Positions 9,164 through 63,361 of a stretch of 64,000 nucleotides of DNA are shown one piece after another. Source of the DNA: a virus (taxonomy: Duplodnaviria; Caudoviricetes). A program made the translations under genes and the position numbers. The notes below the pieces were generated by a model. That model had not been told where the DNA came from and made no database searches. It worked only from the letters and a program-made list of their open reading frames with translations. Within the stretch, counting starts at the first letter, position 1. Each line of letters starts with the position of its first letter. The stretch lies in IMG/VR virus record IMGVR_UViG_3300020112_000420, positions 1 through 64,000 of that record; one strand, written 5' to 3'.

Positions 9164-9270
9164 AAAATACCCCCTTGCAAAGTCACAGCGACTCATGCTA
9201 TAATAGTGTCGTCAAGCGGGGGAAGGTGAGATTCACGGTGAGTCGAAGCCCCTCAATGACAGAAGGAGAA
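9164..9270 (+). promoter_or_regulatory. Early sigma70-type promoter P1 with structured leader
   Basis: aaaataccccc TTGCAA(9175) N18 TATAAT(9199), extended -10, downstream gtcaagcggggg. Confidence 0.75.
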
Positions 9271-9275
9271 AGACC

Positions 9276-10184
9276 ATGAAGAAGAACACGACGAACACGG
9301 CGGACAGCAAGAACTACACGGCGGACAAAATCGCCAACTTGATTCTTGAGCAGTTGGATAAGGGCGTTTGCCCGTGGACGAAAACGTGGCACGGCGGACT
9401 TGTGCCGCAGTCGGTTGACGGTCGCCCGTATCGCGGTATCAACGCGCTGATTCTCGGCATGTTGCCGTATGACGTGCCGCGCTATGTCACCTTTTCTAAA
9501 GCGAAGGAAATGGGCGGGATGGTGAAGAAGGGCGAACACGGCTACCCCGTGATTCTGTGGAAGCCGTCGAAGTGCGCGGAGAAGGACAAGGACGGCAACC
9601 CCGTTTTGGATAAGGACGGCAACCCGAAGATGCGCCGCTTTATGACGATGCGCGGGTACACGGTTTTCAACGTGGCGCAATGCGAGGGGTTGCCCGAAAA
9701 ATGCTACAAGGTCGAAGGTCTCAAGGCGCATGAGCCGATTGCCGAAGCCGAAGCCATTTGGAACGGGTACGAAGGCAAGCCGCATACGATGTACACCAAC
9801 GGCGATTCGGCGTTCTATGTGCCGATGCTCGATACGATTAACATGCCGAAGATGGGGTTCTTCAATTCGCCCGAAGAGTTCTACGCGACGCTGTTTCACG
9901 AGGGCGTTCATTCGACGGGTCACGAAAAGCGTCTGCACCGCGAGTTCGGTCACGGGTTCGGTACGGAGCAGTATAGCAAGGAGGAACTTGTGGCGGAAAT
10001 CGGGGCGACGTTGCTGTGCAACATGTGCGGCATTACGCGCACGGTGAAGAATGCGGCGGCGTACTGTGCGTCTTGGGCGAAGCATATCAGGGGAGAGCGT
10101 TCGGTCGAAATCGTGTATGCGGCGGCGAGAGCGCAGAAGGCGGCGGATTGGATTATGGGGAAGCGGTACGACAAGGAGGGGTAA
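9276..10184 (+). CDS. ardC: ArdC-family antirestriction / ssDNA-binding protein with zincin-like domain
   Basis: LDKGVCPWTKTW, GRPYRGINALIL, YVTFSKAKEMGG.VKKGE, YTVFNVAQ, FYATLFHEGVHSTGH..RL.R, YSKEELVAEIGA, AAYCASW. Confidence 0.9.
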   Translation: MKKNTTNTADSKNYTADKIANLILEQLDKGVCPWTKTWHGGLVPQSVDGRPYRGINALILGMLPYDVPRYVTFSKAKEMGGMVKKGEHGYPVILWKPSKCAEKDKDGNPVLDKDGNPKMRRFMTMRGYTVFNVAQCEGLPEKCYKVEGLKAHEPIAEAEAIWNGYEGKPHTMYTNGDSAFYVPMLDTINMPKMGFFNSPEEFYATLFHEGVHSTGHEKRLHREFGHGFGTEQYSKEELVAEIGATLLCNMCGITRTVKNAAAYCASWAKHIRGERSVEIVYAAARAQKAADWIMGKRYDKEG

Positions 10185-10245
10185 AATCTGAAAACGGCGG
10201 GAGCGGGAAACCGCCCCGCCATAACCAACCTAAAGGATAAAAACA

Positions 10246-10560
10246 ATGGTAAACGAAATCGTCAGATATCGGAACGCTATGGGAAAGAAGTATGCCCATA
10301 CATTCATAGATTACAATGGAATTGAACATAATCTCGTCGCGGAGTGTTATACGGATGATGATGAAGTTAAGGAGTGGAATGCCCGATGGGATGTGACTGA
10401 TTCTGCGCGTTCCGATGGGGAAGTTCGGACGCATGGAGTGAAGGAAGAAATGGAAATGGGTACGCATTTGTCCGTCTTGTCTGATTTGATAAAGAAGGAC
10501 TATCCTAGCATTAAGCGTCTTGGATTCGATTATGCGGAGCAGGCGTTTATCCAGTCGTGA
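10246..10560 (+). CDS. Hypothetical protein
   Basis: AAAGGA SD. Confidence 0.55.
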   Translation: MVNEIVRYRNAMGKKYAHTFIDYNGIEHNLVAECYTDDDEVKEWNARWDVTDSARSDGEVRTHGVKEEMEMGTHLSVLSDLIKKDYPSIKRLGFDYAEQAFIQS

Positions 10561-10593
10561 ACAAAACAACCAACAACCAAAGAGAAAGGTAAA

Positions 10594-14589: not shown

Positions 14590-14695
14590 AAAACACCCCC
14601 TTGACGGTAGAGGTGATATTATGTTATTATATGTGTGTCAAGAGGGGGAAGAGTTTGGCACGGTGCTGAACGCCCCGAATGGCGGAAGGAGAAAT
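14590..14695 (+). promoter_or_regulatory. Early promoter P2 with leader
   Basis: TTGACG(14601) N18 TATTAT(14625); gtcaagaggggg; ggcacggtgctgaacgccccgaatggcggaagg. Confidence 0.75.
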
Positions 14696-15374: not shown

Positions 15375-15450
15375 AAAAATACCCCATTGACATTCGTGAG
15401 GTAGAAGTGATACAATGTTCTTGTTGACGGGGAAAAGGCGAGTGCCGAAC
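15375..15450 (+). promoter_or_regulatory. Early promoter P3
   Basis: aaaatacccca TTGACA(15387) N18 TACAAT(15411). Confidence 0.7.
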
Positions 15451-15513
15451 CCCGAAGACGAAAATCCGTGCGACATGGAGGTATGTCGCGGAAAGAAGGA
15501 GAAGGTGGTTGAA

Positions 15514-17987: not shown

Positions 17988-18625
17988 GCAGTTCCAAAGA
18001 AGAAGACATCGCAAGCGTCTATAAAATACAATATGGTATACGCTGTTATCTCGGTACGCGGGAATACATTTGCATACCGAACGTGTCGTGGGGTTTCTTC
18101 AAGAACATCGAGTGCGACATGATTGCCATTGGCGGCAACAACAAGGTTCACGAATATGAAATAAAGCGTTCGTGGTCAGATTTCATGGCCGACTTCAAGA
18201 AAGTCCATTTCCACGACGACATACGGATTTGCAACATGACGTATGTTCTGCCGAAGTCGTTTGCCGATGAGCGGCTTGTCGCGTTCTGTGCGAACAACTA
18301 CAAGAACTTCAAGCGCGAGTTTGACTTTCTGTTCTACAACGATGACGACGGTGGCATTGTTCCGAAGGAGCGCATTACCGTGACAACGCAATGGGGTGGG
18401 TATGGCACGACAATGGCGTTCCCGAAGCAGTATCAGAGCGAAACGTACATCACGCCCGACATGCTGACAACCATACGGGGAAACGACGCGGCAGAACCGT
18501 ATCGGCGCGGGCTATTCCTCGAGGAACGCGCCAAACTGTATCGCCTTGCGCTTATCAAGATTTGGTCTGACATAGCGAAAATCGAAAAAAACACCCTTGC
18601 TGGTAGAAGCGATAATATGGTATAA
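17984..18625 (+). CDS. MmcB-like PD-(D/E)xK nuclease-fold protein
   Basis: CIPNVSWGFF..ECDMIAI...VHEYEIKRSWSDFMADFKK. Confidence 0.65.
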   Translation: MSSSKEEDIASVYKIQYGIRCYLGTREYICIPNVSWGFFKNIECDMIAIGGNNKVHEYEIKRSWSDFMADFKKVHFHDDIRICNMTYVLPKSFADERLVAFCANNYKNFKREFDFLFYNDDDGGIVPKERITVTTQWGGYGTTMAFPKQYQSETYITPDMLTTIRGNDAAEPYRRGLFLEERAKLYRLALIKIWSDIAKIEKNTLAGRSDNMV

Positions 18626-18630
18626 TGTCG
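18586..18630 (+). promoter_or_regulatory. Early promoter P4
   Basis: aaaaacaccc TTGCTG(18597) N18 TATAAT(18621). Confidence 0.65.
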
Positions 18631-18656
18631 TCATCTAATGGAAAAGGAAGGAAAGC

Positions 18657-20917
18657 ATGACGGAAACCGAGAGAAGGCAGATAGCGCAGTTCGCCAAGGA
18701 AGTTCGCAATGCGGTGGCTTGCAAGAATCCGGGGAAGAAGGAACGCAAAGTCTTGAGGGCCGTAGATGGAATTGACCTTGTGACGGGAATTATTACGAGG
18801 GATTCTGCAAAATGAAAAACAACCGCAACAAGAGCATGAAGCCGTTGAGCCAACCCGACACAATTGGCGTGCCGTTTGGCGACCTTGAGGGGGATGATGG
18901 CGCACTTGAGCGTTTCCAAGACACAAAAAGGAAAATGTATGGTATTGGAGTGGCGATTCGTAAGATTGCTCCGATTCGACGCATGAGCAAGAGCGCGTTT
19001 GCAAAATGGAAATCTGGCATTTGCTACATTGGTGATGATGAACCGTTGCGCAACCACATTTGAATAAAAAAACAAACGGGAGAACATGGAAAAATGAAAC
19101 GAGACAAGGATGACGGTCTGTATGTGATGTACCATGGTGACGTGTATCGCGTCGTCAAGTACGCGAAATGCGACAAACGCCATTGTTCTCTTTTCACAAA
19201 AGGCAAGTGCGACCACTACGGACTCGTTCGCGATTGCCCGTGCTTTCCGCTGATTGACATTATCGACAAGGCAACGCCAATGACGCAAGGCGTGACGTTT
19301 CAGCGTGTCCGTCTATTCGACCGTCCGCATTGCGACAAGTGCGTTCACTTGGCGCGTTTTTCTGAAACGGGCGCGAAGGGTAGGCGCGTCTGGTGGATGG
19401 AATGCCCGCACAACAAGAACATGAAGAAGTGGGATGGCTCTCTCGCTTCGCATTGTTGCAACTACACGAGGGGCTGTTGATTCCTTGACGACATGACGCG
19501 GAAAGAAAAATACGGCGAACGCGCCGACGCGGAATTTGAAAACGCAATGGCGTGGTATGCACAGCACCATGAGCGTTGCAAGGAGAATTGCGGGCGTTGC
19601 GGAGAAATCGACTGCAAAGAGGCGTGGATGGCTACGGAACTCGATGAAAACGGCGACCCGATATGCAACTGATTGCCATAGCGATTGTCGGCATGTTCTT
19701 ATTCGTCTCTTGTGCGGTCATCGTGCATTACAAACCAGACGGAGAAGAATGGAAGGGAGTTGAAGAATGACAGACCCTTTATTTTTTGTTCTTTCCAATG
19801 ATTGCATGGTTAATCCTAAACGAATCATCGGGTACAAAAATAGAAAATTGTATCTCGATGGTCTTAAAGAGCCGTATTTTGTATTAACAGAAGAAGAGGA
19901 CAAGAAACTTATAAAAATACTTGAAGTGAAAGGAATGATTGACGATGGCGAAGAGGTTATTTAAGGCGGCGTTGGGGTTCTGCGTTGGAGTAATGACAAT
20001 TCCACTCGCGGCAATCGCATACCCATTTTTGATTTCGTATTACCTTTACACAGAGAACACCGAGGACTACGACATTATCTGACTATGAGCGGTTCTGAAA
20101 ATAATAACGCCGAATGCCTTTGTGAAACGTGCGCTTACTGCATTGAAAGCGTTTATGGTAAAAAGAGATGCGGATTTAGCATAGTTTGGAAATTGGAAGG
20201 TCGCAAGACGTGTAAAAACTATCACAACAAAAAAATTCCTTTCGTATCTACCGAAAAGACTACATACCGTGGTCAGGTGTTCGGAATCCGCATGACATCG
20301 CCTACGGTAAGGCGTTCTGATTATGAGGTGAAGACGACGAGGAAGTTCGGTGAGCGTTCCGAATGTTGGCATGGCGGAGGGATGTTCAAAAGCAAGACAA
20401 ATTGAAGACACGAAGGGAAATCGAAAAAATGACGGTTGACTTCAGAATCGGGTTTTCGCACGAAGTGTTGCAGTATTTTGCTCATTTCAGATACACGGGA
20501 AGATACAACGAGAGTTGCAACAAACTCGCGCTTAACCTTTGCGAAGCGATGAACAACACGATTGAAGCGTCCATCAAGGAGCAGAACATATTACCCGTTT
20601 CGGTAGAACACGCAAGAGAAGCAGCCAAGGGGAGCCAGACAATGCACGTCTGGCTTGACATTTCGACCATTGGCGGAAAAATCATCTGCGAGGTTTTGTT
20701 CGACCCGACGAATGAGCAGAACACATGGGGCGGGCCGAGGAAGATTAAAATGGCGTACAAGTTCGCGGATTGCCTTTGCGAGTATGTCAAGAACTTCCGA
20801 AAGACGGCGGTTCGCAACGGTGCGTGGCCGAAGGATTGGAAGTTCATTGAACTTCGGCGCAAGATGCCGTCGTGGGCGGGATATGGTCTGACCGAAGACG
20901 AAAAGAAAGGCGACTGA
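18657..20917 (+). CDS. Cluster of small hypothetical ORFs (18657-18815, 18812-19063, 19094-19480, 19767-19964, 20085-20405, ~20429-20917)
   Basis: SD motifs and overlaps; several Cys-rich. Confidence 0.45.
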
Positions 20918-21074
20918 CGAGCAATGAAGACATGCGAACACAAGGAACGCGCCGTATGGATTCAAGGCACGACGTTGAATTTGGGATGCTGGCGTTGCTC
21001 CATAACGCACAATGAATGTTCATGGGCTAAAATGAAACAATGCCCGTTCTATACAAAACAAAGGAAAACAAGAA

Positions 21075-22529
21075 ATGAAGAAGTTTGAATCATTGTTTTT
21101 TGCCTTTTTAACCTTTTCCATATCCTTATTAGCATCTCCGTTGGCGGGGCGTTCATTATGGTGCGACGAAATGTTGAGATGCAAGGTATTTACGACATAT
21201 TCTCTTGCTGATATATGGAACGGCGTAGCATTGGCAAGTTTCGATTCCCAAACGCCTCTGTGCTATACCATCTACATACCAATGCAAGTTATTTTCGGAT
21301 TCAGACTAGGCTCGTGTCTAATTTCCGCTTTGTCAGCATCTGCATTGTTTCTATTGTCCGTCAATGCGTTTACATGTATTTCTGGAAGTAAGCCAAGTAG
21401 AATTTCAATGTTAGTTGGGTCGTTAAGCCCATCGCTTTTATACTTCGGTTCTGAACTATGGTTTTACATGCCGTTTGCTTTTTTCGTCTCATGGTTTTCC
21501 TACGAATCAATGAGATATTACGTCGGTGTTCGCAAGTTAGTGAGCATACGTCTCGTGATTTCATCGTTTCTTACATTCGGAACTCATTTTTCCGGCGCGT
21601 TTACGGTTGCTACAATCGCATCGTTTGTCATCGTGTCTTTTATTGTAAAAAAAGAATGGTTTAAGACGGCGTGTTATTTGTCAAATTTACTACCATGCGC
21701 ATGTCTCGTGCCGATGTATCTAATCGCAAATACATCCGCTCGTCACATGGATTGCATAGGAGGAATACGTTGGAACGCACTAGGAACTTCTATTTGGTGG
21801 ATATGGTCTTATCTGACTACGCAGATACCATTCTACTGCTATGGGGTTTTTGGATTTGCGGCCATTTTGTTTGGTGCTTACCGAATGTTGAAATCAAGAA
21901 AATGGGTAGCGTTTTTTGTATGTGCGACCATGTTTTCTGTAATTCCATATCTTGTCTACTCACATATGAGGGGATATGATTTCAACGCCCCGCGTTTTTG
22001 GTCTTTTGCAACATACTCGGTACTTGTATGCGAAATGTTTGCATTGAAGTCATGCAATCGAATTTATGAAAAAATGATTTTCATTTTGTTGTCGGCGGTC
22101 TGTTTCGTTTCAGTCTATGGTTTGGTTTCCGCAACTGGACGTGCTGTTTCATATCGCAAGATGTCAGAGCAGATTGACAAGGTTGCTCCGAATGTAAAGG
22201 CCGTATTCGTAAACCACTATGAGACAAGGTGGTTTATGTGGAATTACAAATTCAATACAAACAGGAAAATGGAAGTTGCGGGATATTGGGAAATGGGGGA
22301 AAGCACAAGAGCCAAAATTCTTTACTCGATAAAGCAACGCAAAGAGCCGTTTGTAGTTTACATAGGAGGAGAGGCAGATGAGAAAATGTCTCGTTTGGTT
22401 GGAATAGACACAACTCCGCTCGTGGTGTCGGATGATGACAATCTTGGGAATATGCTTTCCCTTGTCGGTATTCAGCGAAAAGTAAAGTTCTTCAAGCCGT
22501 ATTTCACGGTGGTAAACAACAATAAATGA
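21075..22529 (+). CDS. Polytopic membrane glycosyltransferase, GT-C fold (PMT/ArnT/Gtr-like)
   Basis: LAGRSLWCDE motif after the first TM helix; about ten hydrophobic segments; soluble C-terminal domain; markedly AT-rich. Confidence 0.7.
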   Translation: MKKFESLFFAFLTFSISLLASPLAGRSLWCDEMLRCKVFTTYSLADIWNGVALASFDSQTPLCYTIYIPMQVIFGFRLGSCLISALSASALFLLSVNAFTCISGSKPSRISMLVGSLSPSLLYFGSELWFYMPFAFFVSWFSYESMRYYVGVRKLVSIRLVISSFLTFGTHFSGAFTVATIASFVIVSFIVKKEWFKTACYLSNLLPCACLVPMYLIANTSARHMDCIGGIRWNALGTSIWWIWSYLTTQIPFYCYGVFGFAAILFGAYRMLKSRKWVAFFVCATMFSVIPYLVYSHMRGYDFNAPRFWSFATYSVLVCEMFALKSCNRIYEKMIFILLSAVCFVSVYGLVSATGRAVSYRKMSEQIDKVAPNVKAVFVNHYETRWFMWNYKFNTNRKMEVAGYWEMGESTRAKILYSIKQRKEPFVVYIGGEADEKMSRLVGIDTTPLVVSDDDNLGNMLSLVGIQRKVKFFKPYFTVVNNNK

Positions 22530-22543
22530 AAGGAAAGCGATAA

Positions 22544-23159
22544 ATGAAAAATCTGCCCCTGAAGGTTCATATTCCAAAAGGCGACAAGCAAGTGGTCACG
22601 CTTGTGCCGATTGGAAACATACATTCGATACGCGAGGTGACGGACGAAAAAGACCTTTCCTACGGTTTTAAGTCGCGTATATTCTTTTTGGGCGAGTCGG
22701 AAGGGTGCATATCCGTGTCTGACGACATACTAGACATTCTGAAGCAATACCAACATATGTTTGAGTTCGTGCAGTCAACTAAAAGCAAATTCAAAAAGGG
22801 AGCGTGAAAAAATGCTTTCACCACTTGCAGTTGCCACGGAACTTGAGACGTTCAAGAGGGCGCATAACGGAGGTCAGATTATCACCGATGCCGTCCGAAC
22901 GATACGGGAGCAGAACGATGAACTTCGGCATTACCGCGCAATGGAAGCGCAGTTCGGTGATATGTTGAGGTTTGTCAAGAAGCACATGGGTCGCCGCATG
23001 GAGATATATGCTCGGCGCAAGAAATACAAGCGAACGGCGGGAGGATTGGAAGAGATACGGTATGTGATTCCGACGGGCGCGGAGCGCAACATGTTCGACG
23101 GCATGGTTCGCGAGTGCGAGAAGTATGTGCCGAACGCGGGAATTTACGGGAAACTGTGA
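22544..23159 (+). CDS. Two hypothetical proteins (22544-22807, 22810-23159)
   Basis: SD motifs. Confidence 0.5.
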
Positions 23160-23404
23160 AAGAGTACAAGTTTCAGATACGGTTTTCGCCGTGCTATTCG
23201 GACAATCCAAATCGCGATTGTCATTGGCACGATGTCGATACGATGACGGATGTTTCCCGCCGTCATGCATTAGCGCACTTGAAGTCATTGTCACATGATG
23301 CTATTAGGTACGATTACAGACTTCTTGAACGCGAAGTGTTGCCGTGGAAAAGGTCGTTTGTCGCCTACAAGTCAACAGAACAGCAAGAAAGGAAAAAACA
23401 AGGT

Positions 23405-23662
23405 ATGGATAATAAACGTGAGCAGTTTGAACGGCGCATCGAGGAAATCGTCGTGGCACAACTCGGCGTAAACAAGGAGAAAGTGAAGGACGACGCGAAC
23501 ATCTGCGCCGACCTTGGTGCTGACTACCTTGACATGGTTGAACTCGTGATGGATGTCGAATGCAAACTTGAAATCACGATTCCCGACCAAATGGGCGAGA
23601 CGATTCAGACCGTCAAACAACTGAAGGAAGTTGCTTGGGCGGAGTATTCTAAAGGCATTTGA
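23405..23662 (+). CDS. Acyl carrier protein homologue with the phosphopantetheinylation Ser replaced by Tyr
   Basis: RIEEIVVAQLGV.KEKVKDDANI.ADLGADYLDMVELVMDVE.KLEITIPD..GETIQTV, versus canonical DLGADSLD; the frame is also open from GTG 23156. Confidence 0.8.
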   Translation: MDNKREQFERRIEEIVVAQLGVNKEKVKDDANICADLGADYLDMVELVMDVECKLEITIPDQMGETIQTVKQLKEVAWAEYSKGI

Positions 23663-23678
23663 CGGGCGAAAAAAAATT

Positions 23679-23785
23679 AAAATACCCCCTTGCGGTGGAT
23701 GCGACAAATATGCTATAATGTAAGCGTCAAAGGGAGAGAAGGTTTTGGCAAGGTGCTGAAACGCCCAATGGCAGAAGGACAAAAA
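23679..23785 (+). promoter_or_regulatory. Early promoter P5 with leader
   Basis: aaaataccccc TTGCGG(23690) N18 TATAAT(23714); ggcaaggtgctgaaacgcccaatggcagaagg. Confidence 0.75.
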
Positions 23786-23802
23786 AGGAAAGAAGGTCAG
23801 AA

Positions 23803-24452
23803 ATGGCGGAAATGATGAAGAGGTACGAAATGACGCAGGACGAGCGTAATGCCATGCGTCGGATTGCGGGCGACCAGTCGTGGGGATTCACCTACGATGA
23901 AGTGCTTGCCATGTCAAAGGTTGCGCAGATGTGCGACATTGGCTCTTTTACTATGTTCGACATGAAGAAGTATCTGCCGAAGACGTGGGATATTCCCGCA
24001 AGCATCGACAAGCCGAACAAACTCAAGGTGTTCATTTCGGACTTGCTTGAGGATTGCAACTTTCACGGCGAGTCGTGCCTTATCGACGGTTGTTGCTATC
24101 GTCTTCTCGACGAGCATTACAACATGCTGAAGGCGCACGAGGAGGAATGACCATGAGCAAGTACAACACATTGGACGAGTTGCAGACCACGCCAGGGAAT
24201 TGGCAAATGTCGTCGCCAACGAATGAGTTGGCTATAATGACGGATGCATCGCCTTGGGTGATTGCGACCATATGCGACTATGCGACGGGAACTTCTATGG
24301 CGAAACGGAACGGTCGTCTTATGATGGCTTCCCGTGAACTGTACGATGCTTGCTATGAGGCGTTGCATTGCGGAAAGGCGGTTTATCTTGGTGACAAGGT
24401 GCTGTCTAAACTGATTGCGGCGTTGGAAAAGGCGGGAGGGCTTGAAAAATGA
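23803..24452 (+). CDS. Two hypothetical proteins (23803-24150, 24153-24452)
   Basis: SD motifs; follow P5. Confidence 0.55.
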
Positions 24453-24903
24453 AGACTGTTGAAGAGTTGGATGAAAACAAGGTTCGCGATGCCTCCCGAA
24501 AACTCTATTCGGCATTGCGCCGTTGCTATGTGGCGTTCGGTCATGTCAACGCGCCTTCCTTGTGGGAAGAGGTCAAGTGTGCGCTATCGGAAGCGTCGGG
24601 GGAGCAACTGACATGACAATGGAATTGTTTGCATGAGTGATATGAAATTAAATAAGACGAGAAGTTTCAAAGTGCCTGAAAGAAAACATCCTACATTGAT
24701 TTCACAGCCCCATCGTGAGGCGCGTGTTAAAACGGAAATCACGAAGGCAACAGACGTGCGTGGGTGCAAACACGGAAGCGTTGAGCCGACAACGGGGAGA
24801 TAATACTGCCAACCATGGAGAGCGACTTCATTGCCCCAAAAAGGAGAGTAATACTGGTACCACCGTTCCCGTTCGGTGTCCTCGCAAACGGGATGGTCTT
24901 GAA

Positions 24904-25416
24904 ATGAAAAACAACATGATAATAACAGAAGGTAAACACATTCTCGATGTGACGTGTAGCAACCGTTCAATCTGGTTTGACAAGGAATGTCCTATAGCGT
25001 TGTATTGCGATAAGCGTAAATGCGTAGAAACGGTAGTGTTTGCAGGTGGAAAGAAAAAACAAGATTGCGTTGTCAACCCCGATGTTGTGTGCGACTTCAC
25101 AGACCTACCATTCTTCGACAATTCATTTGAACTCGTCGTCTTTGACCCTCCCCATGCTTTGAACATAAACGAGGATTCTTGGACGTGTAAGAGATATGGA
25201 ACTTTGCTCAATGGGTGGGAAGAGGTGGTAAAAAGCGGTATCAATGAATGTATGCGCGTTCTGAAGCCATACGGAACTTTGATATTCAAATGGAGCGATG
25301 TTCACATTTCCACAGCCGACGTTATAAAGGCAATCGGAATTACGCCGTTGTTTGGGCATAGAAGCGGTAAGAAAATGAACACACATTGGATGGTTTTTAT
25401 GAAAGGAGATAAATAA
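24904..25416 (+). CDS. Small phage SAM-dependent (DNA) methyltransferase
   Basis: ILDVTCSNRSIWFDK, PDVVCDFTDLPF.DNSFELVVFDPPH, ECMRVLKPYGTLIFKW, PLFGH. Confidence 0.75.
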   Translation: MKNNMIITEGKHILDVTCSNRSIWFDKECPIALYCDKRKCVETVVFAGGKKKQDCVVNPDVVCDFTDLPFFDNSFELVVFDPPHALNINEDSWTCKRYGTLLNGWEEVVKSGINECMRVLKPYGTLIFKWSDVHISTADVIKAIGITPLFGHRSGKKMNTHWMVFMKGDK

Positions 25417-25417
25417 C

Positions 25418-26526
25418 ATGGTCATTAACTTCAGCACCAGACGACGGGATGTGGATAATTCCGTATACTTCGGGTCGTGCATTATTCAGAATTGGCTGTT
25501 TGCCGCCATCAAAGAAGAGGCATGGAAAAAGCACATTAGCGAGAACACCTTGATACGGAAGATTCTTGCCGAGCATTTCAAGTCCAAGAAGCCGAACGGT
25601 TGCATTGCCGACCCCGTGGATGAACTCGACAAGCGTATGAGAACAAGTGACTAATGGTTTTGTATGCACGACGTGGAAAGTGCCATTTATCCAGTTGTTG
25701 AATTTGCAAGAAGCCATTTGTTGGTAAACCAATGGGATGCGGCAAAGGTTGTATCTACTGCATATTTCAAACTCGTTGCATGTGGTGACGAAGCAGAACA
25801 GAATGAAGTTGCGAAAATCATCATGTCCGTTGATTGCAAGGTAAGCAAAAAACACCATAACCTTGAATGTGGAATAAGGATAAATGAATGGGATGCACTT
25901 GATGCCATATTTGAAATACAAAAGATTTTTGGATATGGCTTTTTCTCAAAAAGGTTTAGAAGAAAACTGACGAAGATTGTTGAAAATTCAAACTTATTCA
26001 AGGCACGGACAACTCTTATTGAAGTTTTGAAAGCCGCATATTAGGTGTTTTGTATTTGATTACGAAAGGAATTAAGCATGACAAACAATAAAAAGGTAAT
26101 GGTTTGCGAAGCGGAAGATTCGCGCATGGTTGGGTTGAAGTTCGACGTTCCCGACCTCTTGGCGCAGTCCAGCGACTTCGCCGTGAAGAAGTTTATGAAG
26201 CGTTATATCGCGGAACGATTCGACATCGACATGTCTGGCGTTTCTCTTACCGTCACTTCCGAAGAATAACATTGACAATGAAGAGATTGAAAAATCTTGT
26301 GTATGCCCTTTTGTTTGGTATGGTAATCGGTATTGGGATTGACATAGCACATAGCGTAGAGGTTATTCCTATAAAGCATGACGAACTTTCAAAAGAGATT
26401 AATGACCTTAAAAGCACCATTAAAGAACAAGAGCGTTTGATTCGCGCACAGCATGACACGATTGAGAACATGCAGAGGCAGATAATTAAGTACAAGCGGC
26501 TGTCTGAAAAGAAATCGTCTACTTGA
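25418..26526 (+). CDS. Four small hypothetical ORFs (25418-25654, 25664-26044, 26078-26269, 26278-26526)
   Basis: SD motifs; the last has a TM helix plus coiled coil. Confidence 0.45.
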
Positions 26527-26539
26527 CACGGTATAGAAA

Positions 26540-27232
26540 ATGCGAGAGATATACAATACCGACTGTTTTTCGTGCATTGAAAAGACTGTTTCCGAAGTCA
26601 GCAACCCAATCATTGTGACTGACCCACCCTTTAACGTTGGATATGGGTACGATGAATATGTCGATAGGTTGCCAGAAGAAGAATACCTTGAAAAGTTGGA
26701 TTATATTTTTAGTCTTTGCCCATCTGTCGTGATACACTATCCCGAACATTTGTATAAATTGTCGGTAAAGATGGGAAAGATACCGATGCGCGTCATATCT
26801 TGGGTTTACAATTCAAATACGCCACGTCAGCACCGCGACATTGCCTATTTCGGTATCGAGCCTGATTTTCACGGGTTGGGTGAATATAAAAATCCAACAG
26901 ACAAGAGAATTGCCGAGCGTATATCAGAAGGGAAAAAGCCGATTGGCTATGATTGGGTGTATGCAGACCAAGTGAAGAATGTCAGCAAGGGTGTAAATTC
27001 TCATCCGTGTCAAATGCCTCTCGCTGTCATGTTGTATGTGGTGAGGACTTTGCCACACGACTGCACAATCATTGACCCATTTATGGGTAGCGGAACAACA
27101 TGTTTGGCGGCAAAAAGGAACGGCATGGAGTATGTCGGAATTGAGATAAGCAAACGGTACTTCAAAATTGCCTACAACAGATTGAATAACGATTCTCCAT
27201 TGTTTGATACCATTGAAGGTAATGAAAAATGA
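26540..27232 (+). CDS. DNA amino-methyltransferase (N6/N4 family, beta class)
   Basis: IVTDPPFN; HPCQMP; IIDPFMGSGTT; YVGIEI. Confidence 0.9.
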   Translation: MREIYNTDCFSCIEKTVSEVSNPIIVTDPPFNVGYGYDEYVDRLPEEEYLEKLDYIFSLCPSVVIHYPEHLYKLSVKMGKIPMRVISWVYNSNTPRQHRDIAYFGIEPDFHGLGEYKNPTDKRIAERISEGKKPIGYDWVYADQVKNVSKGVNSHPCQMPLAVMLYVVRTLPHDCTIIDPFMGSGTTCLAAKRNGMEYVGIEISKRYFKIAYNRLNNDSPLFDTIEGNEK

Positions 27233-27717
27233 AAATAAAAAAGCAAATCAAGAACAAACCAAAAACGCTGTCACCTTGGGAATGGACGCTCATTGTTGCC
27301 GCGTGGCGATACTACGAGAACCGCATGACGATTGCATCTTCCATGTTCCCGCATGAAATCATCGAGCATTTCTTCTGTGGCGCGTATGACGAAGATTCAT
27401 GCAACCGCATTGCCCGTCAGTTTTCCTATATTGACCACCACAATGGCGAAAGCGATTGGAGTGGTACGAAGTACCTTATGGATATGGATAAAACGCCGTG
27501 GTGCAAGTTCTACGCCTTTATGAAGGCGTGGATAGACGGATTCGCAACCGTGACGGTCAGCGACGGGAAAAAGACCGAGGTTGTCGAGGCGTTTTACTGC
27601 GAGTTCACGAAGCGATGGCATCCGAAGCAGTTGTATATGGCGGGTGGACTGCACGAAAGCGCATACATACCACCGGAATACATTAAGAAGATTGTCGGGG
27701 GAAATCGAAATGTTTGA
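27229..27717 (+). CDS. Hypothetical protein
   Basis: ATGA overlap; 162 aa. Confidence 0.55.
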   Translation: MKIKKQIKNKPKTLSPWEWTLIVAAWRYYENRMTIASSMFPHEIIEHFFCGAYDEDSCNRIARQFSYIDHHNGESDWSGTKYLMDMDKTPWCKFYAFMKAWIDGFATVTVSDGKKTEVVEAFYCEFTKRWHPKQLYMAGGLHESAYIPPEYIKKIVGGNRNV

Positions 27718-29441: not shown

Positions 29442-29482
29442 TACCGTTCCCCAGCAGATAGATTTGTTTGATTTATAATGCC

Positions 29483-38030: not shown

Positions 38031-38038
38031 ACAACCCG

Positions 38039-53259: not shown

Positions 53260-55086
53260 ATGGTAAACTTATCCACGGGTCGTGACTTCGACGAAGCGGA
53301 CGAAGAGGAAAGCGGTAATGCCGACATTACCGAACACGCCTTTTTCGCCCCCGCGTTCTATGAAGCGTGGGACGATTGGATAACGGGTACTTACACCACG
53401 CCCGACGGAGTGACGCACACGTTGCGCGAGATGATTCTTGCGGGCGGGCGAGGTTGCGTGGACGGTGACACGCTTGTAGACACGCCTATGGGCAAGGTTC
53501 GCATCCGCGACTTCAAAGGCGGCAAAGTGCTGTGCTTTGACGGCGGGCGCATGACAGTTGGCGAGGCGAAGCGTCCGACAATGGGTACGGAAGAAGACCT
53601 TTATGCCGTGACGGTCGAGGACGGTCGAACGATTGTCTGCACCGACCAGCACAAGTTCCTTACGGGCGGCGGCAAGTGGAAGCAAATGTGCCAACTCGCC
53701 CTTGGAGAGCCGCTTGTCATGCTCGGAAAATGCGGCTACGCGGAGAGTGTCAGCGTTGCGTCCATACGTTTCGTCAAACGCGACTACTACTATGACCTCG
53801 ATGTCGTCGGGACGCACAACTACTTCGCCAATGGATTCCTCAACCACAATAGCACAAAGTCATCGTTTGCGGCGGCGGCTATCGTGCTGGCGTTGGAGCG
53901 CGATTGGCAAGACGCGGAAGACCGCAAGTGCGGGCGAAACGGCATGGGCATCGGGCCGAACCACGACCTTCCCGACAAGAAGTGGTATCGCCATCTGACG
54001 AACGCCATTGTCTATCGAAAGGTTGCCGCCACGCTTGCCGATTCCGTCTACAACCAATTTGCGCAGACGATGGGCGACTACATGGGCGAAGCGATAATGA
54101 ACCATTGGAAGTTCAGAAAATCGCCGCTCTCGATTGTCAACGAGGAGTCGGGTCAGGTCATTATGTTCCGTGGCTTGGACGACCCGCTGAAGTCGAAGTC
54201 CATCAAGCCGCCGAAGGGGTACTTCAGATACCTATGGTTGGAAGAATGGGCGGAGTTCGACGGCATGGAAGAAGTGCGTTCCGTCCGTCAGTCCATTCTT
54301 CGCGGCGGTAAGAAGATGCAGTCGATTTACTCGTACAACCCGCCCGAAACGTCGTCGAACTGGGTCAACGAGGAAGCGGAGCGCGTCGTCGAAGGGCGCA
54401 AACTCTACAAGTCGGACTACCTATCCGTGCCAAAGGAGTGGCTTGGGGAGGACTTCTTCATCGAAGCGGAGAACCTCAAAAAGCAGAACTACCGCGCCTA
54501 CCGCCACGAGTATTTGGGAGAAGTCACGGGTAATGGTGGAACGATATTCCCGAACCTCGTTGAGCGCGAGATTAGCGATGAAGAAATCAAACACTACGAC
54601 ATTATTAGGTATGGATTGGACTTTGGTTTTGCCATTGACCCTGCGGCGGTTGCGTTCCTTTACTATGACGTGACGAGAAGGCGCGTGGTGTGCTTTAACG
54701 AAATCTATGAAAGGGGATTGACAAACCAAGAACTTGCAGAGAAGGTGCTGAAGAAGATTGTCAACCTTGAGTTCGTCCATTGTGATAGTGCTGAACCGAA
54801 GTCGATAGCCGAACTCATATCGTGTGGCATCAACGCGCTTGCCGTCCGAAAAGGCCCTGACAGTATTCGTGCGGGCATCCACTTTTTGCAAAGTATGAAC
54901 TCGATTGAGTGCGACATGCGCAGAACGCCAAACTTTTACAATGAGTTCAAGAAGTATGAGTACGAGAAGGACAAGAGTGGAAATTTCGTGTCACGCTATC
55001 CCGACGGGAACGGCGTTGCGAACCATCTCATCGACGCCTGCCGCTATGGATTAGAGGATGATATGACGCACGGTGGACTGTTCTGA
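53260..55086 (+). CDS. terL: Terminase large subunit, PBSX type, containing an intein
   Basis: Walker A GGRG|STKS split by the intein; FRGLDDPLKSKSIK; LWLEEWAE; SYNPP; YGLDFGFAIDP; DSAEPKSI; NHLIDACRY. Confidence 0.92.
   Translation: MVNLSTGRDFDEADEEESGNADITEHAFFAPAFYEAWDDWITGTYTTPDGVTHTLREMILAGGRGCVDGDTLVDTPMGKVRIRDFKGGKVLCFDGGRMTVGEAKRPTMGTEEDLYAVTVEDGRTIVCTDQHKFLTGGGKWKQMCQLALGEPLVMLGKCGYAESVSVASIRFVKRDYYYDLDVVGTHNYFANGFLNHNSTKSSFAAAAIVLALERDWQDAEDRKCGRNGMGIGPNHDLPDKKWYRHLTNAIVYRKVAATLADSVYNQFAQTMGDYMGEAIMNHWKFRKSPLSIVNEESGQVIMFRGLDDPLKSKSIKPPKGYFRYLWLEEWAEFDGMEEVRSVRQSILRGGKKMQSIYSYNPPETSSNWVNEEAERVVEGRKLYKSDYLSVPKEWLGEDFFIEAENLKKQNYRAYRHEYLGEVTGNGGTIFPNLVEREISDEEIKHYDIIRYGLDFGFAIDPAAVAFLYYDVTRRRVVCFNEIYERGLTNQELAEKVLKKIVNLEFVHCDSAEPKSIAELISCGINALAVRKGPDSIRAGIHFLQSMNSIECDMRRTPNFYNEFKKYEYEKDKSGNFVSRYPDGNGVANHLIDACRYGLEDDMTHGGLF
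53455..53850 (+). mobile_element. Mini-intein (132 aa, no homing endonuclease) in the TerL Walker A motif
   Basis: Starts CVDGDTLV; block B CTDQHKF; ends YDLDVVGTHNYFANGFLNHN with +1 Ser. Confidence 0.9.
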
Positions 55087-55585: not shown

Positions 55586-57472
55586 ATGTTTGGCAAGATT
55601 AAAGACATATTCGGCAAGGGCAAGCCGTTGGAAGAAGTGAAGAAACCGAAGCGCGAGAAGTCCGCGCTTGAGCGCATTAAGGAGAACCGCGCCCTCAACG
55701 GGCGACCGAAGGTCGGACTGCACAAGACGTTCGACAAGGAAGCCGCGCTGAAGCGGTGCTTTCCCCGTCAGGGCGTAGGCACGAACAAGGGCATTTGCAT
55801 TACGCCCGACGTGCCGATGGGTTCGGCGGCGAACGGTGCGTCAGACGCGCCCCGTGGCACGGTGGCGACGGACGCAAGCGAGGAGGGTGGCGCGGAGGCG
55901 GCGCGTCGCCAAGACCAGTTGGAGCGCATGGAGTATTTCAACCCGCTGTCCCGTTGGGGCATGGACGAGAAGGTGCTGGAACTCTACGAGAGCCGCGTCT
56001 TCATCGGATTCCCCGCAATGGCGCAGATTGCGACGCATGAAATCGTCTGCGGTGCGCTCGACATTCCCGCGAAGGACGCAATCGCGAAGGGCTACACGAT
56101 TGACATTGCCAACGAGGGCGGCGAAGAGAGCGACAAGGACAATGACGGCGTGGACGAGAAGAACGCCGACATGGTGCGGAAGATTCTGAAGGTGGCGGAC
56201 GGCGAACACCGCATCGGCAACGTGTGCCGCAACTTCTGCTTTCAGAAGCGCGAGTTCGGCGTGGCGTATGCCGTGCCGATTTTCAAGGACGAGGAGAACC
56301 ACGACTACAGCAAGCCGTTCAACCCCGACGGCATTGCGAAGGATTCCTTCATCGGCATGAAGGTCATCGAGCCGATTTGGATGTCTTGGGAGTTCAAGAA
56401 GGCGGACGCGAACAACCCGCTGGCGTTTTCGTTCTACGAACCGGAGTGGTATCGCGTCCAGGGCAACGAGCGCATCCATAAGTCGTGGGTCGTCAAGGCG
56501 ATACACGTCCCCGTGTCGGATTTGAAGAAGCCGACCTACTACTTCGGCGGCATGTCGCTGACGCAGATGATTTACGAGCGCATGTACTGCGCGGACAAGT
56601 GCGCCAACGAAGCCCCGATGTTGGTTATGACGAAGCGTCTGTTGGTTGCCGACGCGAACGTGCAGGCGATGCTGTCGGACGACACCGTGGCGAAGAAGAC
56701 GATGGAATCGCTCAACTACTTCCGCGACAACTTCAGCGTGTTCTTCAAGAACCCGAACACGCAAGTCAACCAGATTGACACCTCGTTGGAAGGCGTGGCG
56801 CAGACGGGCATGACGATGTATCAGTTGTGCGCGGCAATCGCGGGTATGCCCGTCACCAAGTTGATGAAGAACGTGCCGACGGGACTCCAAAGCACGGGCG
56901 ACTACGAGATGGCGGACTACCACGAGTTGCTGACGGAAATCCAGGAGCATGACTACAAGCCGCTCATGGATATGTACTTCAAGTGCCTCACCAAGTCGAT
57001 GTTCGGCAAGGTGATAGACGTTGTGGTGAAGTTCAACCCGCTCGACACGCCGAAGCGGGGCGAAATCGTGCAGGAGGAGTCGTCGTTGGCTTCCACGATT
57101 TCGACGTATCTGACGGCGAACGTGATTACGATTGAAGAGGCGCGTGACATTCTTCGCAAGCGCAAGGACGGTTTCTTTTCGGGCATTGGCAAGGTGCTTC
57201 CCGAAACGTTGGAGAAGCGCAAGCAGACGGAACTCGCGCAACTCGACCAGCAGATACAGCAGGCGAAACAGCCGCAGAACCCGATGGGCGGCATGGGCGG
57301 AGAGCCGACGGCGGAGAACGACCCCGCCGCGCAGGAGGAAGAGCAGTTGACATCCCAAGCGGTAGCCGAAGCGGAGAAGGTGATTCAAGGCAACGGCGCG
57401 GAAGGTGGCAAGGAAGAGGAAGGTGGCGAGAACGCCGAACAGCCGCCGAGCAAGGAAAGCGCGGAGGGATAA
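55586..57472 (+). CDS. Portal protein, DUF1073 (HI1409) family
   Basis: FIGFPAMAQIA..., NPLAFSFYEPEWY, IHKSWV, YFGGMSLTQ, IAGMPVTKL...PTGLQSTGD; position after TerL. Confidence 0.85.
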   Translation: MFGKIKDIFGKGKPLEEVKKPKREKSALERIKENRALNGRPKVGLHKTFDKEAALKRCFPRQGVGTNKGICITPDVPMGSAANGASDAPRGTVATDASEEGGAEAARRQDQLERMEYFNPLSRWGMDEKVLELYESRVFIGFPAMAQIATHEIVCGALDIPAKDAIAKGYTIDIANEGGEESDKDNDGVDEKNADMVRKILKVADGEHRIGNVCRNFCFQKREFGVAYAVPIFKDEENHDYSKPFNPDGIAKDSFIGMKVIEPIWMSWEFKKADANNPLAFSFYEPEWYRVQGNERIHKSWVVKAIHVPVSDLKKPTYYFGGMSLTQMIYERMYCADKCANEAPMLVMTKRLLVADANVQAMLSDDTVAKKTMESLNYFRDNFSVFFKNPNTQVNQIDTSLEGVAQTGMTMYQLCAAIAGMPVTKLMKNVPTGLQSTGDYEMADYHELLTEIQEHDYKPLMDMYFKCLTKSMFGKVIDVVVKFNPLDTPKRGEIVQEESSLASTISTYLTANVITIEEARDILRKRKDGFFSGIGKVLPETLEKRKQTELAQLDQQIQQAKQPQNPMGGMGGEPTAENDPAAQEEEQLTSQAVAEAEKVIQGNGAEGGKEEEGGENAEQPPSKESAEG

Positions 57473-57628: not shown

Positions 57629-57704
57629 GACTTGGGCGAACGCCCGCATCGTCGTTGGTGGTGTTCTGAACGGGCGGCGGTGCGGGCGAAAACCCTAACG
57701 AAAA

Positions 57705-57737
57705 GGCGGTTTTCATAGCGAAAGCCGCCATTTTTTT
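57705..57737 (+). terminator. Rho-independent terminator
   Basis: ggcggttttc / gaaagccgcc followed by attttttt. Confidence 0.65.
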
Positions 57738-57754: not shown

Positions 57755-57840
57755 AAAATACCCCCTTGCGCGGTAGATGCGATTTATGGTATCATATTGG
57801 TGTCGAAGGGATAAGAGGAAGGCAAGGTGCTGACCGAACT
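57755..57840 (+). promoter_or_regulatory. Early promoter P10 with partial leader
   Basis: aaaataccccc TTGCGC(57766) N18 TATCAT(57790); ggcaaggtgctgacc. Confidence 0.7.
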
Positions 57841-57943
57841 TTGCAAGTATATCGACGAAGGCGGGTACAACCCGAAAATCAAAAAATACGTTCGTTCGCA
57901 AAATTGGGTTGCGGCGGCATAACGGGAAATGAGGAGGTGCGAT

Positions 57944-59590: not shown

Positions 59591-59674
59591 CGGAAGGTGT
59601 CAGAATCGGTCAATGAACTGGTCTCATAATCCAGCGCGAAAGCATTGCGGGTTCGAGTCCCGCCCTTCCGACCA
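59591..59674 (+). tRNA. tRNA with CAT anticodon (elongator Met or Ile2), extended variable region
   Basis: Acceptor cggaagg/ccttccg + A + CCA; D-arm tca/tga; anticodon loop ctCATaa (59625-27); T-arm gcggg TTCGAGT cccgc. Confidence 0.9.
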
Positions 59675-61043: not shown

Positions 61044-61091
61044 GGGCGGGTTCGGGGTCTGCAAGGGTTTCCTCGTTCCCGCCCCTTTTTT
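61044..61091 (+). terminator. Rho-independent terminator
   Basis: gggcgggttcgggg / cctcgttcccgccc followed by a T-run. Confidence 0.55.
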
Positions 61092-61105
61092 GACCTAGTG
61101 GCTAT
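61090..61105 (+). promoter_or_regulatory. Putative late-promoter motif TTGACC-N3-TGGCTAT
   Basis: ttgacctagtggctat, upstream of 61132/61141. Confidence 0.6.
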
Positions 61106-61131
61106 GGTTAGATAGACAAGCATTAGGAGAA

Positions 61132-63315
61132 GTGCCGAAAATGACAAACAGAGAGTTCTTGCTTGAGGCGATTAAGAAAGCCATTGCGGTGAGCGGTGGC
61201 ATTGAAGCATTTGACGAAATGCCGAAGCCGAACATGGGGGCTGGCATGGGCAAAGGCGGGAACGGAGGCACGGCTGGCGGCGGTGGTGCTATGGGCGGAT
61301 TGGGCGGCGACGGCGATGGGAGCGAGGCGACGCTTGAAGAGCATGACAAGCGGTGGCATCCCGACGGCTACAAGGGAGGGCCGTGCGGTTGGCGCGAGAA
61401 GCACGGCATACCAACTACCGACCCGAACGGAGGAAAAGACCCCAAGGCGCAGAAAGCGGCGAAGGAAGCGGTCAAGGGGACAAACATCAACCCCGATAAC
61501 GTATCAGAGGTCTGGACGCCTGGTCAGAAGCCGCAAGTCATCCAACAGCCCGAAGGCGAGTTGAAGAACACGCAAGGCGGTCTTGGCGACTTGAAATCAC
61601 CGAAGAGCGCGGAGAACGTGGAGAAGTTGGAGCAGTTGAACGCGCAGGCGAAGACACCCCAGCAGAAGACGCTCATACAGGAAATATACGCACGGCTCAA
61701 GTACAAGTTGGGCAATCTCGGCATTTCGGGCGGCGCGGAGGCGGGTTCAACGGGAGCGGCGGCTGGCGGTCAGCCCGAAGCGAAGTACGAGAAAGAAGAG
61801 GATATTCCCTATCTCGACGACATTTCGGACGATGACTATGCGAAACTGTCCCCGACGCAAAAGAAGCAGATTGACGAAAAGGAAGACAAGAGAATCGAAG
61901 AAGAGGCTAAAAAGGGCGACGAAGAATTGGACAAGGAGTTTGCCGAGAAGGAGAAGAGCGACAAGAAGGAATCGGACAAGCGCATCAAGGCACTTGACAA
62001 AAAGATAGCATCCGAGCGCAAGAAACTTGTCGCCAAGCAAGTCGGCATACTGCGCGAGAACGAGCGCAAGGCGTTCCGCAAGTCCTATGACGACGAGTTC
62101 AACGCCATCGAGAAGCGGGTCAAGAGCGGAGAGATTACTCGCAAGCAGGGCGACCGCTTGCAGAAGAAGGCGGAAGACAAGTATTTCAAGGCGCACGAAG
62201 GTTGGAGCGCGAAGAAGGACGAGGACTATTTGGCTGAAGCGAACAAGCGCGTTGGCGAACTGTTGGCTAATGCGTATCAGCCGAAGCCTCCCGCCGAAGG
62301 GGCGAAGCCCGCATCGAAAGCGCGTCAGCAGTTCCAACATGCGCTAGGAAACGCGCACAAGGGAGCGGCGGAACGCGCAAACGGCGCGACGGCGGACGGT
62401 GGAGACAACAAGGGAGATGACATTCTTAACATGTCGCAGGAGGACTTCGACAAGTTGCCCGATGACCAGAAGCGCACGAAGTACATGGAATATCTGCAAA
62501 AGGCGCATGGTCTCAAGGGTTTCGCAAGCGAAGCGGAAACGCCAGATTTCGACAGGATTTCCCCCGAAGAATACAAGAAACTCAATCCTCTTCAGCAGAT
62601 GCAAGTGACGGAGAAGTATCACAAGGCAATGGCTGAAGCGAAAAAGCCGAAGCCTGAAGCGGCGGCGAAGATTAAGCCATATACTCCTAGTTGGGCGGGC
62701 AAGCCGCTGGCGAAGCCGCCGACACCTATGCGCAAGAAGTTGGGTGACGCGCTTCAGCGTTGGGGCAAGGCGTTGAGCGATATGGGCGAAGGCAAGGTAC
62801 AGCACACATACCGAGACTTGGCAATGAAGCACAAGTTGGAGATGAAGGCGCGGGGCATCGACATTTCCACGCCGAAGCATTGGAGCGTCAAGGACTTGAT
62901 GGCTGACAAGCAGAATGCAATCGCCGAGCAGAAGTACGGGGCTGAAGCTGACATGCGGCTGGGTGGTGGTCATCAACCGCAAGGCAATCCTAACGCGCAA
63001 CCGTCGGGGAAAGTCGGAGGCGCGGAGAACAAGTCCGATGGTCTGACGCTCCACAAAAACTCTCTGTTTGGAGAAATCAAGAACCTCGACAATCCGGACG
63101 TGATGGGAATGGCTCTCGACATTGAGAAGGAATACAACGATGCGAAGCGGAGCGGCGATAGAAAGAAAATGATGTCGCTGATGAAAGAGTGGAAGTCGTT
63201 GAAGAAGCAAATGGACGGCGATGATGAAGATGGCGACGAGCAGAAGCGTTGGAACGCAATGGCGGACAAGGGCGTGAAGACGCGGACGAACTACGGAAGT
63301 CCAGACTTTTCATAA
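61132..63315 (+). CDS. Large charged low-complexity head-associated protein with the same N-terminal module as 59726
   Basis: EAFDEM; GGDGDG..TLEEHDKRWHPDGYKGGPCGWREKHG; Lys/Glu/Asp-rich helices. Confidence 0.7.
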   Translation: MPKMTNREFLLEAIKKAIAVSGGIEAFDEMPKPNMGAGMGKGGNGGTAGGGGAMGGLGGDGDGSEATLEEHDKRWHPDGYKGGPCGWREKHGIPTTDPNGGKDPKAQKAAKEAVKGTNINPDNVSEVWTPGQKPQVIQQPEGELKNTQGGLGDLKSPKSAENVEKLEQLNAQAKTPQQKTLIQEIYARLKYKLGNLGISGGAEAGSTGAAAGGQPEAKYEKEEDIPYLDDISDDDYAKLSPTQKKQIDEKEDKRIEEEAKKGDEELDKEFAEKEKSDKKESDKRIKALDKKIASERKKLVAKQVGILRENERKAFRKSYDDEFNAIEKRVKSGEITRKQGDRLQKKAEDKYFKAHEGWSAKKDEDYLAEANKRVGELLANAYQPKPPAEGAKPASKARQQFQHALGNAHKGAAERANGATADGGDNKGDDILNMSQEDFDKLPDDQKRTKYMEYLQKAHGLKGFASEAETPDFDRISPEEYKKLNPLQQMQVTEKYHKAMAEAKKPKPEAAAKIKPYTPSWAGKPLAKPPTPMRKKLGDALQRWGKALSDMGEGKVQHTYRDLAMKHKLEMKARGIDISTPKHWSVKDLMADKQNAIAEQKYGAEADMRLGGGHQPQGNPNAQPSGKVGGAENKSDGLTLHKNSLFGEIKNLDNPDVMGMALDIEKEYNDAKRSGDRKKMMSLMKEWKSLKKQMDGDDEDGDEQKRWNAMADKGVKTRTNYGSPDFS

Positions 63316-63320
63316 GGCGA

Positions 63321-63361
63321 AACCATCCCACTTGCGTATTTCGCCCGTGGGATGGTACAAT
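63321..63361 (+). promoter_or_regulatory. Sigma70-type promoter P11
   Basis: TTGCGT(63332) N18 TACAAT(63356), extended -10; inverted repeat ccatcccac / gtgggatgg. Confidence 0.6.

Follow-up and report, generated by a model that had tools for sequence, protein, structure and literature searches.

A repeated sigma-70-type promoter with a covarying leader RNA: putative expression cassettes in an uncultured tailed virus

The IMG/VR record IMGVR_UViG_3300020112_000420 is a single virus contig of 86,458 bp (Caudoviricetes), classed as linear and estimated to be ~94% complete; its first 64 kb are referred to here as the window. Plus-strand open reading frames (ORFs) occupy 91% of the window, among them a recognisable terminase gene (53260-55086) and portal gene (55586-57472), and a head protease, a major head protein and a cell-wall hydrolase are encoded past it. 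No DNA shared with cultured phages was found, and the portal has no more than 35% identity to that of any cultured phage. In the collections reached, the only related contigs are L119 and L120, with portals 83% and 74% identical to this one. We describe a family of repeats dispersed over this genome and its two relatives, each a predicted promoter of the sigma-70 type, many of which are followed by a structured leader RNA.

An earlier note on this DNA had listed eleven early promoters, all with an 18-bp spacer, a TGn extended -10 and upstream A- and C-tracts. Ten of these sites form one family. A 58-nt position weight matrix (PWM) built from them, and used with a listing cut-off of 12 bits, gives them scores of 41.8 to 66.8 bits, compared with a best score of 12.4 bits in 20 shuffled genomes. 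The eleventh site, at 63332, does have the 18-bp spacer and the TGn, but it scores below the cut-off and carries neither the A- and C-tracts nor the spacer box described below. The matrix also recovered three copies that were not among the seeds (P11 to P13, at positions 64329, 66543 and 68125 of the genome; 38.0 to 54.8 bits), which brings the family to 13 copies in 86,458 bp, all on the plus strand and all ahead of genes; the minus strand yielded no matches to the matrix. Twelve of the 13 are intergenic, and the copy at 18597 overlaps the last codons of the gene upstream of it. Every copy, including five in L119 and L120, shares an A-tract, ACCCCC or a near variant of it, TTGNNN, a spacer of exactly 18 bp, TGn and a -10 hexamer of the TATAAT type. 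A generic scan for the sigma-70 consensus between 30 and 50 kb found 12 sites, where shuffled sequence gave 10.2, so the signal is that of the family and not of promoter-likeness as such. At the level of sequence, these results support the prediction that the sites are sigma-70-type promoters of one family. A candidate divergent promoter on the minus strand was rejected for its unsuitable spacing.

The 18-bp spacer contains a conserved box, GGTAGNNGYGAT, whose exact form occurs eight times in the window, always within a family promoter. The box is found in two registers that lie 8 bp apart: class A is the commoner, and in class B (P3, P7 and P9) the box abuts the -10. Since the spacing of the hexamers remains 18 bp in both registers, the box is more easily read as the site of another protein, for example an operator shared by the promoters, than as a contact made by polymerase.

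Downstream of several promoters the earlier note had recognised the continuation GTCAAG(A)GGGG and a leader, drawn as two hairpins. The continuation and the leader are indeed found at P1, P2, P5, P6 and P8, with a variant at P3 and a partial copy at P10. When P11 to P13 are counted, full leaders stand behind 8 of the 13 promoters, with four further copies in L119 and L120; P4, P7 and P9 have none. Folding from 6 nt after the -10 yields a single nested stem-loop of ~50 nt with three helices, a structure obtained in 12 of 13 single-sequence folds (P1-P3, P5, P6, P8, P11-P13 and the four copies of the relatives) and predicted independently by RNAalifold. The outer helix joins GUCA with UGGC and is separated from the middle helix, GGGG with CCCC, by a purine internal loop that is mostly AGA opposite GAA. 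A 5-nt purine bulge follows, and the apical helix of 6 to 9 bp is closed by an NGG triloop. The two-hairpin drawing is not supported: its CGCC/GGCG hairpin is 65% paired and does not covary, and the bases concerned pair with the 5' GUCA and GGGG. At the gathering score, Rfam reports only a tRNA-Met in the window and nothing in L119 or L120; over the P6 cassette, matches at E ≤10 are noise only. A hammerhead-like core was considered and dropped, CUGA being present in some copies only.

A covariance model built from seven copies and searched over 112 kb returned 12 copies (E ≤0.035), all of them immediately downstream of family promoters; it found none at other places. Pairing holds in 90.8% of the cells of the 12-copy alignment, against 75.6 ± 1.9% when partners are shuffled, and falls to 37-53% when partners are slid by 1-3 columns. 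Covariation among the aligned leaders, those of the relatives included, had been proposed in advance as a check, and it was found: both sides have changed in 9 of the 17 pairs, and none of 500 shuffles reaches the observed values. The apical helix shows the most covariation (5 of its 6 pairs), and the compensatory change that had been noticed in P1 is real and belongs to this longer stem of 6-9 covarying base pairs. The outer helix switches from A-U to G-C in L119 and L120. The G/C helix is invariant, and is neither supported nor contradicted by covariation. G-U pairs account for 30 of the ~177 paired cells and would become A-C mismatches on the opposite strand, so that the fold is available on the sense strand only, hence as RNA. 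Pairing at the RNA level, as suggested earlier, is thus borne out by covariation and by the G-U cells together, and a leader that would act at the RNA level is supported.

The same data bear on a DNA-level alternative, in which the inverted repeat CCCCCTTGAC / GTCAAGAGGGG, with one arm on either side of the core promoter, would be an operator for a dimeric protein or a hairpin promoter of the Frpo or N4 kind. Although its arms are complementary at several copies, the C-tract is conserved equally at P4, P7 and P9, copies that have no +1 arm, and at L120c, whose +1 arm has no G-run. Where the +1 arm changes (L119a, L120a, L120b and P3) the upstream arm stays constant and it is the downstream RNA partner that changes; there is no covariation between the arms. 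The -35 varies (TTGACG, TTGCGG, TTGCAA) without a matching change, and the many G-U pairs suit RNA, not duplex DNA. The arms do pair in three of five predicted read-through RNAs, which could provide an alternative conformer and nothing more. We regard this proposal, which the earlier note had offered as an alternative, as very improbable.

Equally hard to credit is a short leader peptide, or an N-terminal extension, initiated at the apical loop. The conservation of the leader tracks base pairing, not codons: an extra C in P12 shifts the frame and leaves nucleotide conservation undisturbed. The idea draws on the fact that 11 of 12 copies have a GUG or AUG in or beside the loop, preceded by a purine tract; this codon is in frame with the downstream gene at P2, P6 and P8 and opens a 31-codon ORF at P10. 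The frame and the position of the stop vary, however, P1, P5 and P11 are out of frame, and P13 has no start.

Coordinates and scores of the ten family promoters in the window, and of associated features, are given in Table 1.

Table 1. Family promoters and associated features in the window (positions of the window; CM, covariance model; SD, Shine-Dalgarno).
Feature	Coordinates	Strand	-35 at	-10	Leader	PWM (bits)	CM (bits)	Remarks
P1	9153..9268	+	9175	9199-9204	9210-9268	53.8	42.3 (E 5e-9)	
Gene behind P1	ATG 9276							ArdC-like anti-restriction; Pfam ArdcN + MPTase-PolyVal
P2	14579..14691	+	14601	14625-14630	14636-14691 (full)	59.9	76.4	nested structure from single-sequence fold
P3	15365..15461	+	15387		15422-15461 (variant)	51.6		class B, GGTAG box abuts -10; leader with outer and middle helices and short GGC/GCC hairpin, -17.6 kcal/mol, z -4.3
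P4	18575..18656	+	18597	18621-18626	short, unstructured	55.3	no match	no fold
P5	23668..23780	+	23690		23725-23780	64.9	62	
P6	32875..33034	+	32944		32979-33034	66.8	77.3	terminator 32875-32915, -23.3 kcal/mol, 34 nt ahead of -35
P7	35212..35294	+	35234			41.8		class B; no leader stem-loop by folding
Terminator-like hairpin	38038-38088 + T5 (element to 38092)	+						between RecT-like gene and next gene; -30.8 kcal/mol, z -4.58, 0/200 shuffles
P8	39979..40129	+	40038		40073-40129	59.8	68.5	terminator 39979-40022, 14-pair stem + T-run
P9	45097..45175	+	45119			63.3		class B; no leader stem-loop by folding
P10	57673..57860	+	57766		partial	58.3	10.1 (hairpin alone)	directly after portal gene; terminator 57673-57737, -25.6 kcal/mol; NGG hairpin kept, outer helix closed by different, more distant 3' arm; at 57820-57915 loop GUG opens the 31-codon ORF, SD-like tract upstream, usual 3' leader arms lost
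63332 site	63332..63361	+				<12		generic sigma-70-like match, not a family member

The two relatives indicate how the cassettes are placed with respect to gene content. In L119 a promoter with a core matching that of P10 comes after the portal gene, and downstream of it stand homologues of the genes found behind P12 here; relative to L119, this genome has ~8.8 kb extra between two cassettes. In L120 a cassette comes after the portal gene, and next to it stand homologues of the block at 15.0-18.6 kb, with the counterparts of P3 and P4 at their places. The gene order of both contigs breaks at cassettes. The orthologous P3 cassette, at 8309 of L120, keeps the helices with changed bases. The orthologue of P4 (window 18597-18656) is L120 14216-14290, and both stand behind the same 213-aa gene; the L120 copy retains a miniature leader consisting of the outer helix and a small hairpin and P4 has none, so loss of the leader is compatible with retention of the promoter.

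Breaks at such positions are known from T4-type phages, in which promoter-early stem-loop (PeSL) cassettes occur at the seams where gene content and gene order differ (Arbiol et al. 2010, PMC2839356; Comeau et al. 2014, PMC4122927). The present cassettes resemble PeSLs in being intergenic and dispersed in many copies, in having an AT-rich upstream region and a sigma-70-like early promoter, in placing the Shine-Dalgarno (SD) sequence or start at the 3' end of the unit, and in the coincidence of cassettes with differences in gene content and order between relatives. The terminator stem-loop just upstream of some copies may be a further point of likeness. They also differ. The stem-loop of a PeSL is a terminator upstream of the promoter, whereas here it is a transcribed three-helix leader downstream of the predicted start; the spacer is 18 bp here as against 17; and the C-tract and the conserved spacer box belong to the present family. 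The phage is not related to T4, given that no cultured DNA match was found and the portal is at most 35% identical, and the cassettes are therefore analogues of PeSLs and not members of the T4 set.

Outside these contigs the family was not encountered. Exact leader and promoter words, sought in viral and metagenome contigs, led to L119, to L120 and otherwise to chance matches. L089 was set aside, since its one good promoter-like site is the sole such site in its 54.8-kb record. No cassettes were found at the 62 viral-contig and 2 genome-contig loci (~840 kb) reached by a portal-profile search, or at the RecT-based loci L188 and L189. Portals P0004-P0011 are 53-58% identical, and their contigs lie outside the cassette search.

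The position of the leader is as constant as its fold. In every copy, the diverged ones included, the first base of the outer helix lies 6-8 nt past the -10, which is where a transcript made with the primary sigma factor would be expected to start, so that the message would have at most two unpaired bases at its 5' end. Downstream, 2-4 nt separate the stem from a purine-rich, SD-like tract (GAARG). At P1, P2, P8 and P12 this tract is the SD, with ATG 7-9 nt beyond it, and in other copies (e.g. P6 and L119b) a second SD lies further downstream. The genes behind the cassettes are those of anti-restriction, methylases, recombination and small ORFans. Pfam recognises four N6/N4 DNA methylases, an ArdC-like protein, YqaJ, RusA, MazG, a zeta-toxin-like kinase and a type IB topoisomerase among the 86 ORFs of the early region (window 9276-53245), and finds no replicative polymerase, primase or helicase among them.

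The RppH enzyme of B. subtilis requires 5' ends with two or more unpaired nucleotides, and the ompA and aprE mRNAs owe stability to stem-loops at the 5' end (reviewed in PMC3997798); for these reasons we propose that the leader protects the 5' end and insulates the ribosome site. The closest parallels are the stabilisers of ompA and papA in E. coli and of aprE in B. subtilis, in which a stem-loop begins at the 5' end or within ~2 nt of it and has a ribosome site after it, an arrangement that blocks the entry of RppH, RNase E and RNase J (PMC3997798). Those are single cellular genes without shared sequence, whereas here one family with conserved loops extends across a phage genome, and the 5' start on which the comparison depends is predicted, not mapped. 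We thus favour, with a probability of roughly 0.55, the view that these repeats are portable expression cassettes, read by the primary-sigma RNA polymerase of the host, with a leader that would serve as 5'-end protection and insulation. A complete cassette would consist, in order, of a terminator (often), an A-tract resembling an UP element, the C-tract, TTGNNN, the spacer with its box, the TGn -10, the leader and the SD-like tract. Transcription is predicted to start at the G of GUCAAG, ~7 nt after the -10. The stem, with 0-2 unpaired 5' nucleotides, would shield the message from 5'-end-dependent decay and would keep the ribosome site independent of the gene that follows, giving strong early expression of any gene placed behind the cassette. 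The box GGTAGNNGYGAT could serve as the operator for a factor acting jointly on all family promoters, and recombination between cassettes would move gene modules, as has been proposed for PeSLs.

Several points weigh against this view. The start sites, timing and half-lives of the cassette messages are inferences; a comparison of the cell-wall hydrolase with a protein atlas produced nothing that pointed to a host; and P4, P7 and P9 are family promoters without a leader, which is thus dispensable for use of the promoter. Only three contigs carry the family, and the 12 sequences used for covariation are paralogues from those three, between which sequence may have been exchanged, so that the counts are not of independent events; the leader alignment was itself fitted to the covariance model, and the z-scores of individual folds are modest (-1.3 to -2.6). 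The triloop and its closing pairs (C-R-NGG-U-G), GGGG/CCCC and the purine loops are nearly constant while the lower stem changes. A pure stabiliser needs no conservation of sequence, and the constant loop therefore hints at a specific partner and argues that protection of the 5' end is not the whole story.

One suggestion is that the leader binds a regulator acting in trans, either an early or middle protein of the phage or an RNA-binding protein of the host. Such a regulator would recognise the NGG triloop together with the purine loops, and would switch the translation or the stability of all cassette messages in the manner of RegA or CsrA. The pattern of conservation is suited to this, with G at loop position 3 in 12 of 12 copies and U-G after the loop in 11 of 12, next to a lower stem that covaries, and with a conserved purine-rich bulge, internal loop and 3' tail (GAARG); the element also lies 2-4 nt from the ribosome site. 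The same conservation could stem from recent common ancestry of the cassettes or from gene conversion between them, however, and no candidate protein emerged from Pfam scans of the ORFs or from a six-frame scan for CsrA. The CsrA/RsmA site is a GGA in a hairpin loop with a second GGA at the SD. The leader loop is NGG followed by U, and so reads GGU, not GGA, and the phage encodes no CsrA by model scan. We think a regulator of this kind unlikely. A broader formulation, which we put forward with similar reserve, would make the leader a phage cis-regulatory RNA of a new class, with polymerase or a phage protein as its specific partner, and the GGTAGNNGYGAT box a second handle at the DNA level, such that one factor might switch thirteen cassettes. 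Polymerase as the partner, conferring terminator resistance in the manner of put, would be matched by the unusually long stems of the terminators in this genome.

Those terminators also bear on the proposal, made in the earlier note, that the leader is a put- or nut-like antitermination element. Clear intergenic terminators are found at 9006-9063, 32875-32915, 38038-38092, 39979-40022, 57673-57737 and 61044-61091, with energies of -23 to -31 kcal/mol; the stem has 14 pairs at 39979 and ~18 at 38038, where 7-9 bp is usual. Strong terminators stand 25-35 nt ahead of P6, P8 and P10 and 116 nt ahead of P1, and none was found ahead of the other nine promoters. The hairpin that had been reported at 38039-38092 without a promoter after it was confirmed (-30.8 kcal/mol, z -4.6), with three genes and no family promoter behind it.

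On this reading the leader would act in cis as a processive antitermination RNA, folding as it emerges from polymerase and remaining on it, alone or with a small phage protein, through terminators such as 38038-38092. In its favour are the three genes behind that hairpin, the place of the leader directly after early-type promoters, like that of putL (PMC9378689), and the conserved loops and covarying stems. Stems of at least 14 bp resist conAn antitermination (PMC10325885), and having them would suit a genome whose ordinary terminators are read through. Against the proposal, the only clear internal terminator has a long stem and so is of the kind reported to resist antitermination. Thirteen promoters, four of them with a terminator upstream, look like short insulated units, and long read-through operons are not evident. 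Neither put nor nut demands a stem that starts strictly at +1; putR lies ~270 nt downstream of its promoter. The layout as a whole, with terminators before leader-bearing promoters and a stem at the first bases of the transcript, speaks mildly against a leader that alters termination.

Nor does the leader have the architecture of the known elements. The put RNA of HK022 is ~70 nt long with two stem-loops, forms a V shape with a triplex and is present at two sites per genome (PMC9378689). The leader has in common with it that it is a structured RNA with conserved unpaired bases and paired stems, located, like putL, directly after an early promoter; it differs in being one nested stem-loop of ~50 nt, at 8 of 13 promoters. 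HK022 put acts in cis, suppressing termination through the beta' zinc-binding domain and with no protein factor. The conAn system depends on the ConAn1 protein and is present once in each operon, which exceeds 30 kb and contains many internal terminators (PMC8191782, PMC10325885). Its leader RNA, too, comes first in the operon, and the long-stem terminator that ends the operon resists antitermination, the terminators here being long-stemmed as well; neither a ConAn1-like protein nor such a layout was found here.

The nut site of lambda comprises boxA and a boxB hairpin with a GNRA-like pentaloop, and acts with the N protein. Both have, in early transcripts, a small hairpin whose loop contains purines. 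The leader differs in its loop, a 3-nt NGG and not a pentaloop, and in its fixed position at +1; an N-like factor was not identified, and none of the leaders contains a boxA-like word; such words are at chance level in the window (36 found, 42 expected). Six-frame scans of the whole genome found no match to models of sigma-70 regions 2/4, antiterminator Q or CsrA, and no transcription factor is among the 26 Pfam family rows from the 119 ORFs scanned. As the architecture of neither put nor nut is present, and Rfam has no match for the leader, we do not retain the assignment, and we consider antitermination by this RNA to be quite improbable.

A second motif, TT(G/T)AC-N4-YGGCTAT, occurs in 11 copies, all on the plus strand and 13-71 nt before genes, at window positions 4594, 29483, 50373, 55550, 59689, 61090 and 63532 and genome positions 71553, 74194, 75913 and 85456. 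It precedes the portal gene, the head protease gene and other virion genes, and judging from these positions it is probably a late promoter class; the region 2/4 scans in six frames recognised no phage sigma factor able to read it. Because this motif fronts the virion genes, the sigma-70-type cassettes are called early or accessory, a timing that we infer. A tRNA-Met gene (CAT) at window 59591-59674 lies just upstream of a late-type motif.

Two regions of the window stand apart in composition or structure. GC content is 0.43-0.46 at 20001-30000, where two N6/N4 DNA methylase genes and an ACP-like gene are located, and 0.50-0.56 elsewhere; this low-GC island may have been acquired. The 165-nt intergenic region after a 724-aa gene (window 63316-63480), which contains the 63332 site, folds with -71 kcal/mol (z -3.8) and holds CCATCCCAC/GTGGGATGG repeats, with three copies of ATCCCAC/GTGGGAT. 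Its role might be that of a set of operators or of a structured RNA.

The 13 host-type cassettes and 11 copies of the late-type motif together amount to a predicted, near-complete transcription map for an uncultured lineage that has no cultured relatives. The cassettes extend the PeSL idea, that of portable units acting as seams, outside the T4-type phages, with the difference that the conserved structure is a transcribed leader. That leader is a compact RNA motif, supported by covariation and not in Rfam. If it does have a specific partner, it would provide a new handle on the co-ordination of phage early genes, and the cassette itself would be a ready-made promoter and 5' untranslated region part for expression design.

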